Sequence record: NC_014662.1 | Length of the DNA stretch: 64,000 nucleotides | Source: Enterobacter phage CC31 | Reading direction: 5' to 3' (one strand) | In this document: positions 18,167 through 27,963 of the stretch, piece after piece | Numbering within the stretch: the first letter of the stretch is position 1 | Layout of the letters: the number at the start of each line of letters is the position of its first letter | The notes under the pieces: model-generated | Told to the model about the DNA's origin: nothing | The model's database searches: none | The model's input: only the letters and a program-made list of their open reading frames with translations | Translations under genes and position numbers: made by a program

Positions 18167-18357
18167 CGTCTTTCCTGCTCTATTTTAATTGCGACCAATA
18201 CTAAGCCTTTACGATAAGATTCGCGAGGGTCTGCTGGAAATCCCCAACGAGTAAGGCCAGTGTCAATTTCACGTTCAAAACGTAAACGAAGCTGAGCTAG
18301 TTCAGCATCATGATAATCTACAAGGTCTCTGCCTTCAAAAATCATAAGCCAATCCAC
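18154..18357 (-). CDS. hypothetical protein
   Basis: 67-aa ORF. Confidence 0.45.
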   Translation of the reverse strand: MDWLMIFEGRDLVDYHDAELAQLRLRFEREIDTGLTRWGFPADPRESYRKGLVLVAIKIEQERRCTK

Positions 18358-18623
18358 TCTAACACTTCTGGAACAGAAGCATTTTCACAATACAGATTTG
18401 TGCCAGCTACTACCAGGTCACTTTCACCTAGGTCTTCGATGAGCATCTTCTGATTCTTATCTGCACCAGCTTCAAGGTCATGAATCAGCTTAGGCTTAAC
18501 TTTGTCCCAGTCGCCTTCAACGAACTTGATGCATGGAATTGATGTGTAATCTGCTTTAGCCATAGCTGGAACAGCGGAGCAAGATGATATAGCAAAGATT
18601 AGTGCAAGTACAAGTTTTTTCAT
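18342..18623 (-). CDS. periplasmic protein, Spackle (Sp)-like by position and signal peptide
   Basis: 93 aa; signal peptide MKKLVLALIFAISSCSAVPAMA resembles N-terminus of T4 Sp; mature part diverged. Confidence 0.55.
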   Translation of the reverse strand: MKKLVLALIFAISSCSAVPAMAKADYTSIPCIKFVEGDWDKVKPKLIHDLEAGADKNQKMLIEDLGESDLVVAGTNLYCENASVPEVLEWIGL

Positions 18624-18632
18624 TTTGAAACC

Positions 18633-18914
18633 TTACGCATGCTTGACGTTAGTTAAACGAATGAGACGATAGTCATCGTTTTCTAAAGTTGTTACACCAA
18701 TTGTTACACCACCGTGTTTATCGTTAAATGGAGGAATAACTACAATAAGCGTTTTTCCAAGCTCAAGAGCTTCTCGGACAGGTCCTGTGCACTCTAGCTT
18801 AGCATCATCGGACTTAACCACTAAGGTTCCCGGAAGGCAATCCTTGATTTCAGCCTGTGGTTTAGTGTTATCGTAAGTGTTACGAACGACAAGAAGCATT
18901 TGATTCAATTTCAT
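18633..18914 (-). CDS. hypothetical protein at the dmd (61.5) position, not Dmd-like
   Basis: 93-aa ORF immediately upstream of gene 41 with its own early promoter; no similarity to recalled 60-aa T4 Dmd. Confidence 0.55.
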   Translation of the reverse strand: MKLNQMLLVVRNTYDNTKPQAEIKDCLPGTLVVKSDDAKLECTGPVREALELGKTLIVVIPPFNDKHGGVTIGVTTLENDDYRLIRLTNVKHA

Positions 18915-22116: not shown

Positions 22117-23193
22117 TTAGATTTCAATTGCTTTTTTGAATTCAGCTTGCCAAATTGGTTTTTCATCAAGATATTTTTGAAGAATTTTGTGCTGATATTC
22201 AAGAGTTTCAATTCTGAAGTCCTCATCGTTTTTAATTTTATTAATTTTATCAACAAGCTCTTGACGATTGCTCACATAGAAGAACTCATTGCCTTCCATG
22301 ATATTCATGTCAGGGTCAAATGTGCTATCGAAGAATGCTACTGCAGTAGATGCCAGAGCTTCCCATACACGTGGAGTGATTTGGTTATTATCGTAAGTCT
22401 TATCACCGAGCACGATAGTAGCATACGCGGTTGAGTTACGCTGAACCATTTCACGAGAATCTACCTTGCCAGGAAATACTGGTGGAGTAGTCCAAGGAAA
22501 TTCTGGGTTCTTGAATTGGTCTGCCTTAACTGAACCGAAGAACTCAACGTCCAGTCCAGTGTCAAACAGATATTCAACCATCTTTTGTTCGCGATTACCA
22601 GAACGGAAAGTTCCACCATAAATCAGGTCACGCATTTTGATGCCATCAGCAGCAATCTTGAAGACGCTGTGATACATCTTATGACGGTCCAGTGCAAAAT
22701 GAACAAATTCCATTCGGTCCTTAGAGACACCAACTAAACGGTCAGAGTGAATTCGTTTAGCTTGTTCCAGGTCACGGCCTTGAGAAATTACACGAATTGG
22801 AGAGCGAACAATGAACTGCTCTTCTGTGTATTTGCTGGACCATTTTTTCTTCGACATTCGACGCCAAGCTTGTTCCCATGGAAGACGAATATCAGTGAAC
22901 AGATAATAAATCTTTGACTTATATTTGTTCAAGAACATATAAGCCGCTTTATTCATCTTGTTCTCTTCACCGCCGTAGAAGTTCAGAGAAGCATTCACTA
23001 CCAGAACTCGGTCATATACATTCGGGTCTGGGACATCATCAAATGCGATGCCATAAATTGTCTGTTTCATTGAAATGAGGTCAACATCAAGCCCCATATC
23101 TTTTAAGCATTCGGACAGATAAATTGTCTCAGAAGCAGGGGTTGTTTTAAACCCCTGGATGTTGTTACCTAAGTTCAGGATAGCAATTTTCAT
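22117..23193 (-). CDS. bgt: DNA beta-glucosyltransferase
   Basis: 358 aa; MKIAILNLGNN, KYKSKIYYLFTDIRLP, GGTFRSGNREQKMVEYLFDTGL match recalled T4 beta-gt. Confidence 0.9.
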   Translation of the reverse strand: MKIAILNLGNNIQGFKTTPASETIYLSECLKDMGLDVDLISMKQTIYGIAFDDVPDPNVYDRVLVVNASLNFYGGEENKMNKAAYMFLNKYKSKIYYLFTDIRLPWEQAWRRMSKKKWSSKYTEEQFIVRSPIRVISQGRDLEQAKRIHSDRLVGVSKDRMEFVHFALDRHKMYHSVFKIAADGIKMRDLIYGGTFRSGNREQKMVEYLFDTGLDVEFFGSVKADQFKNPEFPWTTPPVFPGKVDSREMVQRNSTAYATIVLGDKTYDNNQITPRVWEALASTAVAFFDSTFDPDMNIMEGNEFFYVSNRQELVDKINKIKNDEDFRIETLEYQHKILQKYLDEKPIWQAEFKKAIEI

Positions 23194-24020
23194 AAAGTGG
23201 GCTCAATCTCACTGAATTTGTTGAAAGCGTCTGACTTTTGTTTCTTGGCTACGCACATACGAAGTACTTTCAGAGGTTCGTCAGTGCCAAACATAGTTTT
23301 GGTTGGGTCACCTTCTGATTTCCAACGAGCTTGAGTTGGGAAGTCAGCATGAATTTTTTCTAATGCGCGGTTTTGTTTAGCCGCATTACGCATAGATGAT
23401 ACGCCGCCAGGAGCTTGTCCTTTGCCAGATTTGACGAGATATTTGAAAATCGCCAGATGAGGATAACCCATATTAATGAGTTTAAGGAACGCGTATGTAT
23501 CTTCGGACAGGTCTACTATACCATATCCAATGTCATCAGCAGAAAGTTTGCTTAAATCGTAAAAAGTGTTAGTGAATCCGTAAGAGTTCTCACGGAAATG
23601 ACCCCACTTAGAATCAATCTTGAAGATAGGCAAACGAGCATGACCATGATAAAATCCACAGTCCATAGCTGCTTCAACATACTGAGTGAGTTTATTGAAT
23701 TCGTCCCATGTCATTCCAACATCGTGAAGAATACGACGGTCGTCTTTAGCACGAATCTCAGTAGTATGAATTGTAGTGTCATCGTCCAGCATCCAGATTC
23801 GTTGACCTTGATACATTTCAGTAATAAGACGACGAGTACCAGCAATACCATTTACATCATCTGGAATAGTTACGATTTTAGCCAACGCACCATAATGCAT
23901 CTCATATTCTTCTTTCTGAGACTCACGTACTACTAAATGAGGTACATAACCAGTAGGGAACATGTCCAGGGCAGTTACTGCCCCAGCACGATTGTAACTC
24001 GGAATTACAAATTGAATCAT
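23190..24020 (-). CDS. GT-A-fold glycosyltransferase-like protein (candidate DNA sugar transferase)
   Basis: about 276 aa; N-terminal QFVIPSYNR nucleotide-sugar-binding-like strand and LDDD (DxD) about 70 aa later; ATGA-coupled to gene 42 upstream and beta-gt downstream. Confidence 0.65.
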   Translation of the reverse strand: MIQFVIPSYNRAGAVTALDMFPTGYVPHLVVRESQKEEYEMHYGALAKIVTIPDDVNGIAGTRRLITEMYQGQRIWMLDDDTTIHTTEIRAKDDRRILHDVGMTWDEFNKLTQYVEAAMDCGFYHGHARLPIFKIDSKWGHFRENSYGFTNTFYDLSKLSADDIGYGIVDLSEDTYAFLKLINMGYPHLAIFKYLVKSGKGQAPGGVSSMRNAAKQNRALEKIHADFPTQARWKSEGDPTKTMFGTDEPLKVLRMCVAKKQKSDAFNKFSEIEPTL

Positions 24021-24754
24021 TTCCATTTGCCTTTGTAGTCAGATTTCTTAACATCAATCCGGCCGGTTTGACGATAATAGTCAACCAGATAGAAATGACG
24101 CTCATACACATGCAGAGACCCAGCGTTCCAAATAATGTCACCTGGAACATATTTTTCACCAGAACCTGCATTAACTGTTTCTACTAATGATTCTAATACA
24201 TATTTCTGCCAAGCATAATCATTGCGGAAACCAAATACAACATCATTGCTTCGCATATTAACGATAGCGTTTACACGACCATCACGAATAAGATATTGAA
24301 CTGTGTTAGTGCACATGAAATCACTCATACCATCACGTTCAAAATCAACTTGCATACTCGGACGAGTGTAAATCATAATTGCACGACGAGAATCTGGTTT
24401 TTCAATCAGCTCAGTTGCGCAGAATGAGAATTGATTATAATTTTCAGCAGACCAAATAGCCCAGCCATAGTTTGAGTTAATTTCGCCCTTTGAAGATGAA
24501 ACCTGTTCCCAGATAGCCGGAGTACCGCCTGGAATATCTTTCACGAACAGAGACTTGGATTTGTACCATGCAAGTTCACGTTCAACATATTCTTGGTTAA
24601 CTGTTCCGAAAATTGAATCTTCGGTTACTACAAAAGATGGACCAATTAACTCAATGGTCTTTGCGCCAGTTTTGTCAATTACAAACATTTCATTGAACAG
24701 AGCATGGCACAGTTCATCACGAATGTCTTCGTTAGTCAGTGGAGTTACAATCAT
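24017..24754 (-). CDS. 42: dCMP hydroxymethylase
   Basis: 245 aa from ATG 24752-24754; VIDKTGAKTIELIG, WYKSKSLFVKDIPG, MCTNTVQYLIRD match recalled T4 gp42. Confidence 0.9.
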   Translation of the reverse strand: MIVTPLTNEDIRDELCHALFNEMFVIDKTGAKTIELIGPSFVVTEDSIFGTVNQEYVERELAWYKSKSLFVKDIPGGTPAIWEQVSSSKGEINSNYGWAIWSAENYNQFSFCATELIEKPDSRRAIMIYTRPSMQVDFERDGMSDFMCTNTVQYLIRDGRVNAIVNMRSNDVVFGFRNDYAWQKYVLESLVETVNAGSGEKYVPGDIIWNAGSLHVYERHFYLVDYYRQTGRIDVKKSDYKGKWK

Positions 24755-25191
24755 TTTGCCTCTTCGTAGTTTTTCTTCATACAACGCTTAAATGCTTCAT
24801 ATTGGCCAGAAGACCTGAAGTTTTCAAATGCGTTGATATTTTTGCTGGTAGGATTATTATACATCGTTTGATATAAGCCTGCACCATGGAACTCAACGAT
24901 AGCTTGACACTTACGAGCAGCTACTTGCTTCTCATAGGTTGCGTCAAATTCGCGTTGTTTCTTCATGACACGTGCCTGGTCACGAGCGATAGGGTCATTA
25001 GCCTGCTGTTGAGCAAGATACTCTTCGCCTGCACGAACAGAAGACTGATTGATTTGAGGGGTTGAACGAGCATACACCAAACCGGTGCCGCCTACATACT
25101 TAACTTGCCCTACAGTACTAGCATGAACAGTGTCTCCTTGGTAAGCACAACCTGCCAGTAGCATAGCAGCAGCTACTGCTAAAAATTTCAT
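24751..25191 (-). CDS. putative lipoprotein (at imm position)
   Basis: 146 aa from ATG 25189-25191 (GAGGA RBS); signal MKFLAVAAAMLLAGC with lipobox; ATGA-coupled to gene 42. Confidence 0.55.
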   Translation of the reverse strand: MKFLAVAAAMLLAGCAYQGDTVHASTVGQVKYVGGTGLVYARSTPQINQSSVRAGEEYLAQQQANDPIARDQARVMKKQREFDATYEKQVAARKCQAIVEFHGAGLYQTMYNNPTSKNINAFENFRSSGQYEAFKRCMKKNYEEAK

Positions 25192-25254
25192 TTTCAATAT
25201 CCTCATTTGTGTATAGAAGAATTATACCACATCCGTGTGGTAATTTACAATGCT

Positions 25255-27963
25255 TTAGAAATCAAACATATTGTCTAAAGATGCTTTTTCTTCATAGTCA
25301 AGACCTGAAGCTTCTGACATACCAGCAAGCGGCTTAACGAAAGACTTTTGGAACAGAGTCGTGTAGTCTAACCAAGCCAGAACATCTTGACGAATTTCCT
25401 GTGGAAGTTCTGTACCTGATGGCCAAGCGATACATTTGTCACCGAATGGGTTACCCTGACGAAGTGGAAGAACCATCACCTTGTTACCCTCGAGAATCGG
25501 AGTGACAGAGAATCCGGCTGTTGCACGATTATAAGTCAGTGCACCACGAACGTGATATGGACATTTAAGACCAGGGAAACCATTATCGTCATATTTACCG
25601 ATGTCATTACAAGTTTTAACTTCTGCAATAACTTTGTAGTCCAGCTGACGATATTCTTTTTCAAACTGCTTGTAGTATTCTTGCAGCGATTCTTCACCTT
25701 CTTGAACCATGCGGCGAATACTTTCTTCCAATGCTTTCTGAACCGCTTTCGGAGTAGAAGACTGCTGAGTCTCCATGCCCATAATCTTCAGGTGTGGTTC
25801 AGCATAACGCTTATCTTCCATATCGTAAACGTTCAGTGCATAACGTTTCTTAGCTTTCCAGAATCCACCACAACCTTTTGAACCAAGCGGCGGACATGAA
25901 ATAGCTTCTCGGTCCATATGCATGAGGTGTTCACGGTTATTGAAGTACTCGCACAGTTCACGATAAGCGGTATCAATCATCGGTTCCATTTTCTTCTTAC
26001 CGAATTGGTTCATAAATTCAACCACTTCGTCAGTTGTTTTGAAACGTTCAAGACCTACTTTTTCAATAACTTTGTCAACTGAAACATAGATTGAGTCAGT
26101 ATCACCTGCTGCGATGAAATCAAATCCTTCGGTTCCACACACTTTATTCAGATACTCGTTAACTTTACGAGCAATCCAACGAATACCTACTTGACCAAAC
26201 AGTGTAATCGCAGATGCGTTACGAAGGTCATAATAACGGAAGTAAATGTTACCCAAAGCACCATAAAGACTGTTGATAAGAATCTTACGGTTCAGCTGGT
26301 TTGTGTTTGCCAGAATAGCAGCAGATTCACAACGAGCCAGCATAGTTTCCAGCACCAACTTAGTGTACTTATTTAGAGACGCTTTCTGTTCGTCAGTGTA
26401 CTGAGTGTAACGAGTTTCATCTGGAGTATCAATGTCACCGAATACGCCAGCAGCTAAAACTTTCTTAATTTCTTCTGCGTTACGTTCTTCTGCGAACATC
26501 TTTTTCTTCCAATCTTTACGCTGGAAGAACACCTTAGCGATTTCTACCGGGATGACACCCTCAATATCTTTACGATACATCCAACCGTTCGGTGAACATG
26601 AATATTCGTCACTTGGTCGTGGAGCAGTCTTATTGATATAAGCTTCGATATCATAAAGTTTGAATTGACCAACAATTGTTTCCGGAGAAATATTCACCTG
26701 ACGAATGATACTCGGATACAGAGATGTTAAGTCGAAACTCATGATGTACTTACGAGCACATGCTAATGGTTCAAATACATATGCACCTGGATAAGTCTGC
26801 TTGATGTGACGCTTACCTTGAGGAATTACTTTGTTCTGTTCTTTCAAGGAGTTAAAGATGATTGCGTCCCAAGTTTTAATTGGAGACATTACACCACCGA
26901 ACGGCATCTTAGCATAATAAGACATACTCAGCGCCAGGTCAATGAATCCACGAACTCGGTCAATACCACCCACAGACTCAACGTCCATGATGTTATAAGA
27001 AATATAACGTTGGTGATTTGTTTCACGAAGTTTGTTAATTGGACCGTCATATGGTAACTTACCACGTTTCGTCTCATACAGAGCGATGTAGTCCAAGTTA
27101 TAAGTTGGTTGGTTCGTGAATGAATACTTCTTGTACAAATCCATGTAATCCAGAATTGTTACACCATCAATACTGAATACTTCTTTTTCACCGTACATGT
27201 TCTGAATGAGTTTTGAATTCACTCGGTTAATTGGAGAGAATCGTTTCATTGTACGTTCACCCAACACATTCTTAACACGGTTCATGATGTACGGAATATC
27301 AAAGCCTTCAATGTTCCAGCCTGTGAAAATTGCTGGACGCTTTTGTTCCCAGAGATTGATGTATTCCAGAAGAAGTTCTTTCTCTGAATAGAACGGCATG
27401 TACACTACGCGGTCAAGAATATGCTGCGGAACTTCATCACCGCCTTCCTTATCGCTTCGTGCTGCTAGCTTCACGTCCCATTCTGAAACTGAGCCATACA
27501 GAGAATCCAGTAAGTCGAAAACGTAGAACTTATCATCGATTGAATCATAATGAGTGATTGCATCGATTTCATACATCGCTTTCATTGGGTCTGGGAATTT
27601 ATCACCTGTAACTTCGATGTCACAGTTAGCAACACGAATGAATTTCTTGTCATAAACAATCTCAGAACCATAAGTGTCGGAGATATAAGCAAGTTTGAAG
27701 TCATCCATACCCATGGCTTCAAGACCGATATCTTCCATACGACGAATCCAATCACGAGCATCTTTCATGGTCGGGAAAGTATTCTTGACACATGGCTTCC
27801 CATAGATATCAAAGAACTTTGTCTTCACACCTTGTTGAGCATGAGAAAACATAGTTGGAGAATATTCAATTCGTCGCTGACGTTCTACACCATTAGAGTC
27901 AATATAACGTTCAATGATGTCATTACCTGCGGTTTCAATAGAGATATAAAATTCTTGTGCCAT
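25255..27963 (-). CDS. 43: DNA polymerase (family B, with 3-5 exonuclease)
   Basis: 902 aa; long stretches match recalled T4 gp43 (FDIEV exo I, YGDTDS pol motif C, SLYPSII motif A). Confidence 0.95.
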   Translation of the reverse strand: MAQEFYISIETAGNDIIERYIDSNGVERQRRIEYSPTMFSHAQQGVKTKFFDIYGKPCVKNTFPTMKDARDWIRRMEDIGLEAMGMDDFKLAYISDTYGSEIVYDKKFIRVANCDIEVTGDKFPDPMKAMYEIDAITHYDSIDDKFYVFDLLDSLYGSVSEWDVKLAARSDKEGGDEVPQHILDRVVYMPFYSEKELLLEYINLWEQKRPAIFTGWNIEGFDIPYIMNRVKNVLGERTMKRFSPINRVNSKLIQNMYGEKEVFSIDGVTILDYMDLYKKYSFTNQPTYNLDYIALYETKRGKLPYDGPINKLRETNHQRYISYNIMDVESVGGIDRVRGFIDLALSMSYYAKMPFGGVMSPIKTWDAIIFNSLKEQNKVIPQGKRHIKQTYPGAYVFEPLACARKYIMSFDLTSLYPSIIRQVNISPETIVGQFKLYDIEAYINKTAPRPSDEYSCSPNGWMYRKDIEGVIPVEIAKVFFQRKDWKKKMFAEERNAEEIKKVLAAGVFGDIDTPDETRYTQYTDEQKASLNKYTKLVLETMLARCESAAILANTNQLNRKILINSLYGALGNIYFRYYDLRNASAITLFGQVGIRWIARKVNEYLNKVCGTEGFDFIAAGDTDSIYVSVDKVIEKVGLERFKTTDEVVEFMNQFGKKKMEPMIDTAYRELCEYFNNREHLMHMDREAISCPPLGSKGCGGFWKAKKRYALNVYDMEDKRYAEPHLKIMGMETQQSSTPKAVQKALEESIRRMVQEGEESLQEYYKQFEKEYRQLDYKVIAEVKTCNDIGKYDDNGFPGLKCPYHVRGALTYNRATAGFSVTPILEGNKVMVLPLRQGNPFGDKCIAWPSGTELPQEIRQDVLAWLDYTTLFQKSFVKPLAGMSEASGLDYEEKASLDNMFDF

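Follow-up and report, generated by a model that had tools for sequence, protein, structure and literature searches.

What occupies the interval between gene 43 (DNA polymerase) and gene 42 (dCMP hydroxymethylase) in a T4-like phage without Imm at this locus, and does it stand in for Imm? The question is raised by a 146-aa open reading frame (ORF) in a 64,000-nucleotide stretch of Enterobacter phage CC31 (NC_014662.1), referred to here as the window. The initial annotation rested on the premise that T4 has Imm between genes 43 and 42, and took the ORF to be a lipoprotein that fills the imm slot as part of a different exclusion strategy. The premise is correct in that imm is present in the T4 interval, but incomplete, since the T4 interval holds a second gene, imm.1, in addition to imm. 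The results presented below indicate that the window lipoprotein is very likely the counterpart of imm.1, left next to gene 42 by a deletion of imm.

The stretch at 24000..25400 is 99% identical to vB_EhoP_ZX13 (hereafter ZX13) and 95-98% identical to many PG7-like phages, and the window belongs to a T4-like Enterobacter phage of the PG7-like Karamvirus group. The order on the minus strand is gene 43, the 146-aa ORF and gene 42, with the following features:

25255..27963, minus strand: gene 43, DNA polymerase, 902 aa (ORF; DNA polymerase annotation in relatives).
25221..25250, minus strand: candidate sigma-70-type (T4 early-like) promoter, TTGTAA-18-TATAAT with a TG extension (consensus scan, 10/12 matches; consensus match only).
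25206..25211, minus strand: CACAAA junction of a 231-bp deletion (comparison with ZX13, PG7 and VPA32).
25200..25204, minus strand: Shine-Dalgarno GAGGA of the lipoprotein gene, 8 nt upstream of the ATG at 25191 (sequence).
24751..25191, minus strand: lipoprotein gene assigned to the Imm.1 / phrog_1754 family, 146 aa plus stop (ORF, translation, full-length phrog_1754 match at E 3e-43, dN/dS ~0.13).
25147..25191, minus strand: predicted signal peptide, 15 residues, ending in the lipobox LAGC at 25147..25158 (PROSITE-type pattern test).
24781..24909, minus strand: segment bounded by the codons of Cys95 (24907..24909) and Cys137 (24781..24783) (invariance in 26 sequences; AlphaFold helices).
24751..24762, minus strand: GAGGCAAAATGA, comprising the last three codons of the lipoprotein gene (E-A-K-stop), the gene 42 Shine-Dalgarno and the ATGA overlap (junction alignment).
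24017..24754, minus strand: gene 42, dCMP hydroxymethylase, 245 aa (Pfam Thymidylat_synt 9e-15; gp42 annotation in PG7; 68% identity to T4 gp42).

The Shine-Dalgarno region of the lipoprotein gene, GAGGATATTGAAATG, is identical in PG7, ZX13 and myPSH1140. A longer ORF reading from an in-frame ATG at 25206 was considered and set aside as an unlikely start, because this codon overlaps the GAGGA, relatives annotate the 146-aa start, and the PHROG profile starts at MKF. At the other end of the gene, the ATGA at 24751..24754 overlaps the lipoprotein stop with the gene 42 start, and the gene 42 Shine-Dalgarno (GAGG, 6 nt upstream of the ATG) lies inside the lipoprotein ORF, bearing out the coupling to gene 42 proposed in the initial annotation. 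Upstream, the candidate promoter overlaps a hairpin with a 7-bp stem (25225..25242) just past the gene 43 stop, and its match to consensus is consistent with early transcription of the lipoprotein gene from a sigma-70-type promoter. The 231-bp deletion took out a 74-aa ORF located between gene 43 and the lipoprotein gene in ZX13, PG7 and VPA32; in ZX13, CACAAA direct repeats flank the extra segment.

Homologs of the lipoprotein were found in Karamvirus, Moonvirus and Gelderlandvirus. Within Karamvirus its dN/dS is ~0.13, with 24.7 synonymous versus 13.3 non-synonymous differences to PG7, and the gene is real and under purifying selection. Judged by identity between genera (35-41% for the lipoprotein versus 72-76% for gp42 and 81-87% for gp43), it is nonetheless evolving much faster than the products of the flanking genes. 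The C-terminal 500 aa of the gene 43 product retain 79% identity to T4 gp43.

The protein begins MKFLAVAAAMLLAGC, with a predicted signal peptide, MKFLAVAAAMLLAG, followed by the lipid cysteine. It matches the PROSITE-type lipobox pattern (Lys2, Cys15, Ala at +2), as do T4 Imm.1 and the Merlin, S16 and CkP1 proteins. Cys15 is invariant in 26 homologs, and so, or nearly so, are Leu12 and Gly14. The lipoprotein originally read from this ORF is thus upheld, with Cys15 as the predicted lipidated residue. The signal peptide is the only hydrophobic segment of the protein. In E. coli, the +2 rule predicts sorting to the outer membrane for lipoproteins lacking Asp at that position; the window protein has Ala there, and it is predicted to be sorted to the outer membrane and anchored facing the periplasm. 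Asp is found at +2 in none of the homologs examined. The mature region had been described as Gln-rich. It does contain 13 Gln in 131 residues (9.9%), but the enrichment is mild, Ala being more frequent (16), and the trait is not conserved among homologs.

AlphaFold2 runs with 12 and then 26 homologs produced the same architecture (pLDDT 72 and 77). In the model, the signal helix is followed by a tether predicted with low confidence (residues 16-27), a β-hairpin (29-41) that holds KYVGGTGLVY, the most conserved motif of the family, a helix (49-64) and an antiparallel helical hairpin (helices 67-112 and 116-145, pLDDT 88-98). All 26 sequences compared share, besides the lipobox cysteine, Cys95 and Cys137, and the model places these two on opposite arms of the helical hairpin at similar distances from its turn, from which we infer that they probably form a disulfide, as would be expected in the periplasm. 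Structural and sequence searches with the lipoprotein returned no informative neighbor, the fold being a generic helical hairpin, and PADLOC yielded no match for it. In Pfam, the window protein had no match at E <= 0.1, DUF5481 and Imm_superinfect included, the latter profile detecting T4 Imm (7e-16) and CkP1 Imm (1e-17) as positive controls. A PHROG scan at E <= 0.1 returned phrog_1754 and weak matches to families of unknown function, a virion-protein family and the Rz-like spanin family phrog_1275 (E 0.043), the last covering only residues 1-26, the signal peptide.

The match to phrog_1754 connects the window protein with T4 Imm.1 (NP_049661), which is encoded between gene 43 and imm and is itself a lipoprotein (LAGC), starting MKIAILVIALGLAGC. 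Both proteins match this PHROG over its full length, with E 3.2e-43 for the window protein (residues 5-147 on profile positions 1-147 of 148) and 6.1e-43 for T4 Imm.1 (profile positions 2-146 of 148). They share the lipoprotein signal (LAGC, Cys15), a QGxxV..S.VG motif after the lipid cysteine, a C-terminal xxNxC(M/V)KN motif with a conserved cysteine framework, and a place in the 43-42 interval immediately after gene 43. T4 Imm.1 differs in its length and number of mature cysteines (125 aa and four, versus 146 aa and two in the window protein), in lacking the GGTGLVY hairpin motif, and in being followed by imm, whereas gene 42 comes next in the window. Clear full-length homologs (33-41% identity, E 1e-11 to 5e-23) with the β-hairpin motif, two mature cysteines and the same place after gene 43 are the proteins annotated as 'lipoprotein' or 'putative conserved lipoprotein' in Merlin and KM16 (Moonvirus), S16 and Melville (Gelderlandvirus) and Citrobacter phage CkP1. 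In these phages, however, imm separates the lipoprotein gene from gene 42, and the protein C-terminus is NANK or NAK and lacks the YEEAK tail of the window protein. Most family genes are annotated as 'hypothetical protein', and T4 RefSeq labels its member 'iduronate sulfatase'.

Outside the signal peptide, homology to T4 Imm.1 is remote. Pairwise BLAST between the window protein and T4 Imm.1 aligned the first 30 residues only. The Pfam family DUF5481 (PF17578), built on T4 Imm.1, scores that protein at 5e-72 but does not detect the window protein, and the members found for it are near-identical T4-group proteins only. Comparison of the whole family with T4 Imm.1 by hhalign gave 95.9% probability (E 6e-9); with mature T4 Imm.1, the whole-family profile aligned only 18 residues at 16% probability. 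A profile of the window subgroup, searched against 1.84 billion representative proteins, retrieved only 21 relatives, all of them lipoproteins of 138-192 aa, including a subgroup with four mature cysteines (4-Cys). With signal peptides removed, the 4-Cys subgroup aligned with T4 Imm.1 over 107 columns (hhalign 76% probability, E 2e-5), and three of the four T4 Imm.1 cysteines aligned with family cysteines. The score of 34.3 against mature T4 Imm.1 lies ~10 sd above that of 80 shuffles (11.1 ± 2.3, maximum 20.1). This alignment points to T4 Imm.1 as a divergent, shortened member of the same family; since mature T4 Imm.1 is matched through the 4-Cys subgroup, the link to the two-cysteine subgroup of the window is transitive. 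By family and position, the window lipoprotein would then be the counterpart of T4 imm.1, with a remote, profile-based homology in the mature region.

The arrangement of the locus varies among T-even phages:

43 - lipoprotein - imm - 42: T4, S16 (Gelderlandvirus), Merlin and KM16 (Moonvirus), CkP1.
43 - imm - small Y02C ORF - lipoprotein: SP18 (Gaprivervirus), JS10 (Dhakavirus), one metagenomic contig.
43 - lipoprotein, with no imm nearby: CIP9 (Kanagawavirus).
Neither lipoprotein nor imm at this locus: RB69.

The lipoprotein gene is immediately followed by gene 42 in all PG7-like phages and in metagenomic relatives whose lipoproteins are as little as 52% identical. Tequatrovirus, Gelderlandvirus, Moonvirus, Gaprivervirus, Dhakavirus and CkP1 have both the lipoprotein and Imm, and the presence of the two side by side in S16, Merlin, KM16, CkP1, SP18 and JS10 argues that the lipoprotein is not an Imm replacement. 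Across these genomes, the lipoprotein normally accompanies Imm, though the two genes can occur independently. T4 Imm (PF14373) resembles the lipoprotein in being encoded by its neighbor gene in most T-even genera, in early expression and in envelope location (both predicted for the lipoprotein), but it is a small polytopic inner-membrane protein without a lipobox and has no sequence relationship to the window lipoprotein.

The junction with gene 42 suggests how the window arrangement arose. CkP1, Merlin, KM16 and S16 have the identical 12 nt, GAGGCAAAATGA, at the 3' end of imm, where they encode the Imm C-terminus ...EAK, and the Karamvirus lipoproteins carry an extra tail, ...NYEEAK, that is absent from the Moonvirus and Gelderlandvirus proteins. 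This identity marks the sequence as a probable scar of an imm deletion. In the simplest reading, a deletion would have taken out nearly the whole of imm together with the spacer and the original stop codon of the lipoprotein gene. The lipoprotein ORF would then have continued into what had been the last three imm codons, thereby taking over the imm Shine-Dalgarno and the ATGA coupling of imm to gene 42. The absence of Imm at the locus, as first annotated, extends further: no Imm homolog was found in the window, and none in the complete 172.9-kb ZX13 genome by tblastn with four Imm queries or with an Imm HMM. One match in ZX13 at E = 0.1 was out of frame and was discarded. With no Imm in the whole ZX13 genome, Imm appears to have been lost rather than moved. 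That the window lipoprotein is the imm.1 counterpart and that imm was deleted in the PG7-like Karamvirus lineage, with the lipoprotein kept, is, taken jointly, very likely. The proposal that the lipoprotein fills the imm slot in place of Imm is therefore not sustained, as the arrangement very likely arose through deletion of imm, and not through its replacement.

A copy of the gene also occurs outside phages. The chromosome of Enterobacter kobei (GCA_032579055.1; contig ABNQQD010000001.1, at ~242.3 kb) encodes an intact 149-aa homolog (P0004), 74% identical and ending in ...NYKEAK. Only ~576 bp resemble Karamvirus DNA (76-84% identity), comprising the lipoprotein gene and the first ~37 codons of gene 42, which then gives way to an unrelated reading frame. 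The segment is part of an island of ~9 kb, which has type II secretion genes on one side and an ABC transporter on the other. A large serine recombinase and an IS transposase mark the limits of the island, which also holds a resolvase and, next to the lipoprotein gene, a type II DNA methyltransferase (PADLOC MTase_II 7e-140). The copy was found on no known plasmid, and species-representative bacterial genomes otherwise lack the family. An intact lipoprotein gene beside a truncated gene 42 suggests that the lipoprotein alone is useful to the bacterium, and protection against T4-like phages is the simplest use that this single case suggests.

Based on sequence and model, the window protein would be exported by Sec, lipidated at Cys15 and cleaved by signal peptidase II. 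The mature protein would then comprise a ~12-residue flexible tether, the conserved KYVGGTGLVY β-hairpin and a long helical hairpin, probably stapled by the Cys95-Cys137 disulfide. Tentatively, the most likely of the roles considered is that of an accessory factor in the envelope, belonging to the superinfection-exclusion set of T-even phages; it would work independently of Imm and, in this phage, alongside Spackle. The Sp-like periplasmic protein of the initial annotation is indeed Spackle:

18342..18623, minus strand: Spackle (sp), 93 aa (Pfam T4_Spackle 5e-30; phrog_1586 5e-33; sp annotation in PG7).

Spackle inhibits the gp5 tail lysozyme of the incoming phage. T4 Spackle (gp61.3) is made early, resides in the periplasm and belongs to the exclusion set of T-even phages, and its homolog is encoded in the same window as the lipoprotein. 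The two are unrelated, Spackle being soluble with a cleavable, non-lipoprotein signal peptide. The hints toward an exclusion role are circumstantial, and comprise the linkage to imm in both gene orders, the early-type promoter, the predicted envelope location, the fast divergence and the island capture. On the other side, the linkage between lipoprotein and imm may only mirror a common hyperplastic region, CIP9 and the PG7-like phages carry the lipoprotein without imm and RB69 has neither at the locus, and the bacterial capture is one case. To our knowledge, classical T4 genetics credits exclusion to imm and sp alone. In the literature, we found no experiment or paper on Imm.1 function, and an exclusion role for Imm.1 has been described as one that 'remains to be proven' (PMC5885020). 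The explanation as a whole, an Imm.1-type lipoprotein next to a deleted imm with a putative accessory role in exclusion, is assigned a probability of about 0.6.

Other roles can be envisaged for an outer-membrane lipoprotein of this kind. The outer-membrane lipoproteins Llp of T5 and Cor of T1 and phi80 provide a working analogy for phage exclusion. As a receptor-jamming protein of the T5 Llp / T1 Cor type, the window lipoprotein would bind the phage's protein receptor from the periplasmic side of the outer membrane and alter its surface loops, such that further virions could not adsorb and progeny would not be lost on cell debris. The window protein is predicted to be a small lipoprotein that is made early and sorted to the outer membrane, and it probably has an intramolecular disulfide, as in Llp, and its strong divergence between phages of different host genera and its capture by a bacterial island would both fit such receptor jamming. 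Llp has a Cys11-Cys58 disulfide, and llp adjoins the pb5 gene on its downstream side (PMC9586334). The window gene, in contrast to those of Llp and Cor, sits in a replication cluster (DNA polymerase / dCMP hydroxymethylase) away from receptor-binding genes, its product is twice the size of Llp with a different predicted fold, and no Llp- or Cor-annotated PHROG family was matched at E <= 0.1. In addition, superinfecting phage still adsorb to T4-infected cells, as lysis inhibition depends on, and this argues against receptor masking by the T4 member. We regard receptor jamming as quite unlikely. An unlikely role, too, is one in envelope maintenance or lysis timing, by which the lipoprotein would stabilize the infected envelope, for instance against lysis from without, or modulate lysis inhibition or the holin-spanin pathway. 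A predicted periplasmic, outer-membrane-anchored location is compatible with this role, as is the retention of the lipoprotein in a lineage that lacks Imm but retains Sp, rI and rIII. Its weak PHROG similarity to Rz-like spanins (E 0.043) also speaks for it, but is restricted to the signal peptide. No i-spanin partner was found near the lipoprotein gene, and the genome already has its own Rz/Rz1 pair, with a separate Rz1 gene at 141084..141386 in ZX13. The location of the gene in an early cluster with an early-type promoter, rather than among lysis genes, also counts against such a role, and capture by a bacterial island would be hard to account for.

That same capture bears on a role as a host-takeover or counter-defense effector that would bind and neutralize a component of the host envelope, for example a protease of the outer membrane, a sensor of envelope stress or an abortive-infection system associated with the membrane, as a bacterial island is not expected to keep an inhibitor of its own host's defenses. 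Fast, lineage-specific evolution with purifying selection, likely early expression and the status of an accessory gene in a hyperplastic region would suit an effector of this type, but no similarity to known anti-defense proteins and no PADLOC or Pfam match was found, and we consider this role improbable. Finally, the ATGA overlap and the location of the gene 42 Shine-Dalgarno within the ORF could indicate a dispensable passenger, kept mainly to deliver ribosomes to gene 42. A dN/dS of 0.13, a lipobox and two mature cysteines that are invariant across genera, conservation of the family in genera where gene 42 is not adjacent, and the intact copy beside a truncated gene 42 in E. kobei make translational coupling as the sole function very hard to maintain.

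Compared with these alternatives, we favor the reading of the window gene as an imm.1-type lipoprotein gene with a putative accessory role in exclusion. A bolder version can be formulated, in which the Imm.1-family lipoprotein would be a third, self-sufficient T-even exclusion factor beside Imm and Spackle, acting at the inner leaflet of the outer membrane, strong enough for PG7-like Karamvirus to dispense with Imm, and domesticated by the E. kobei island as a defense gene against T4-like phages; this version is speculative and we hold it to be doubtful. As it stands, the window gene belongs to a known family and is, as an accessory gene, unremarkable; its modest interest lies in the unification of the family with T4 imm.1, the imm-deletion scar and the island capture.

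The textbook account of T4 superinfection exclusion comprises two genes, imm and sp, while imm.1, the neighbor of imm, has no known function. The analysis places imm.1 in a lipoprotein family that very likely extends across many T-even genera, usually linked to imm, kept where imm has been lost and captured at least once by a bacterial island. Unifying this family corrects the annotation of imm.1-type genes and makes their putative role in exclusion directly testable.

Searches across the whole genome of ZX13 (L010, L012, L013 and L014) revealed no gene encoding a PF14373-type Imm, and the annotation of this genome, despite the absence of Imm, contains homologues of Spackle, rI and rIII. Imm-dependent immunity appears to have been lost in the PG7-like Karamvirus lineage. 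In SP18, JS10 and one metagenomic contig, imm is followed by an ORF of 36-47 aa and then by the lipoprotein gene, an order inverted with respect to T4, and in the metagenomic contig the small ORF corresponds to Pfam Phage_T4_Y02C. The imm and lipoprotein genes remain linked in either gene order.

Loci carrying imm, the small ORF and the lipoprotein gene
L017 1608..2504, SP18
L018 2123..3001, JS10
L015 2480..3292, metagenomic contig

The T4 imm.1 gene (L009 4637..5014, corresponding to T4 NC_000866 26636..27013) is labelled 'iduronate sulfatase' in RefSeq. Since its product is a 125-aa lipoprotein of the DUF5481 / phrog_1754 family, the RefSeq label seems to be erroneous.

Several further features of the window lie in the spacer that separates gene 43 from the lipoprotein gene, downstream of gene 42 and next to Spackle.

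Additional features of the window
25225..25242, minus strand, hairpin with a 7-bp stem, TACCACACGGATGTGGTA, directly past the gene 43 stop codon
25206..25211, minus strand, site of a missing 231-bp segment, as compared with L001 2703..2927 and L002 2703..2927
22117..24026 (within), minus strand, β-glucosyl-HMC-α-glucosyltransferase gene (phrog_842, 1e-82)
22117..24026 (within), minus strand, β-glucosyltransferase gene (Pfam T4-Gluco-transf, 2e-59)
18633..18914, minus strand, 93-aa ORF adjoining Spackle, with gene 41 on its other side

Most PG7-like phages, including the 99% identical ZX13, carry the 231-bp segment after gene 43 and ahead of the lipoprotein gene, and it is absent from the window, myPSH1140 and Pet-CM3-4. 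It codes for a 74-aa soluble protein without matches in Pfam or PHROG. In ZX13 the segment is flanked on both sides by CACAAA direct repeats, which suggests that its loss is the result of a recent microhomology-mediated deletion. The hairpin falls within the spacer of the promoter-like site, is conserved in PG7 and ZX13 with one change in the loop, and could serve the gene 43 transcript as a terminator or as an RNA-stability element.

The presence of the two glycosyltransferase genes after gene 42 implies that the phage DNA carries doubly glucosylated hydroxymethylcytosine, unlike the T4 pattern. The 93-aa ORF matches phrog_27384 (unknown function; 2e-44) and yielded no match in a Pfam search.

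Among bacterial species-representative genomes, the lipoprotein motif returned a sole, marginal match (L023 5001..5198; 32% identity over 54 residues) on a 9.5-kb contig of an Anaerolineae MAG; this contig (JBNGCW010000066.1) may be a mis-binned phage fragment. An intact lipoprotein homologue with 74% identity was identified in a chromosomal island of Enterobacter kobei (L022 3486..4061 and L028; GCA_032579055.1, contig ABNQQD010000001.1, ~232-253 kb), together with a truncated 5' fragment of the phage's gene 42. Genes for a large serine recombinase and an IS transposase delimit the island, which also encodes a type II methyltransferase and a resolvase; the locus is phage DNA that a mobile or defence island of the host has captured. 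Foldseek searches of BFVD identified 'lipoproteins' of ~146-153 aa in further T4-like genera, namely A0A4Y5TQS5 (Klebsiella phage Marfa) and A0A0B5A293 (Yersinia phage vB_YenM_TG1), with probabilities of 0.97 and 0.80 at only 15-22% identity; the lipoprotein family may be wider than sequence searches reveal.
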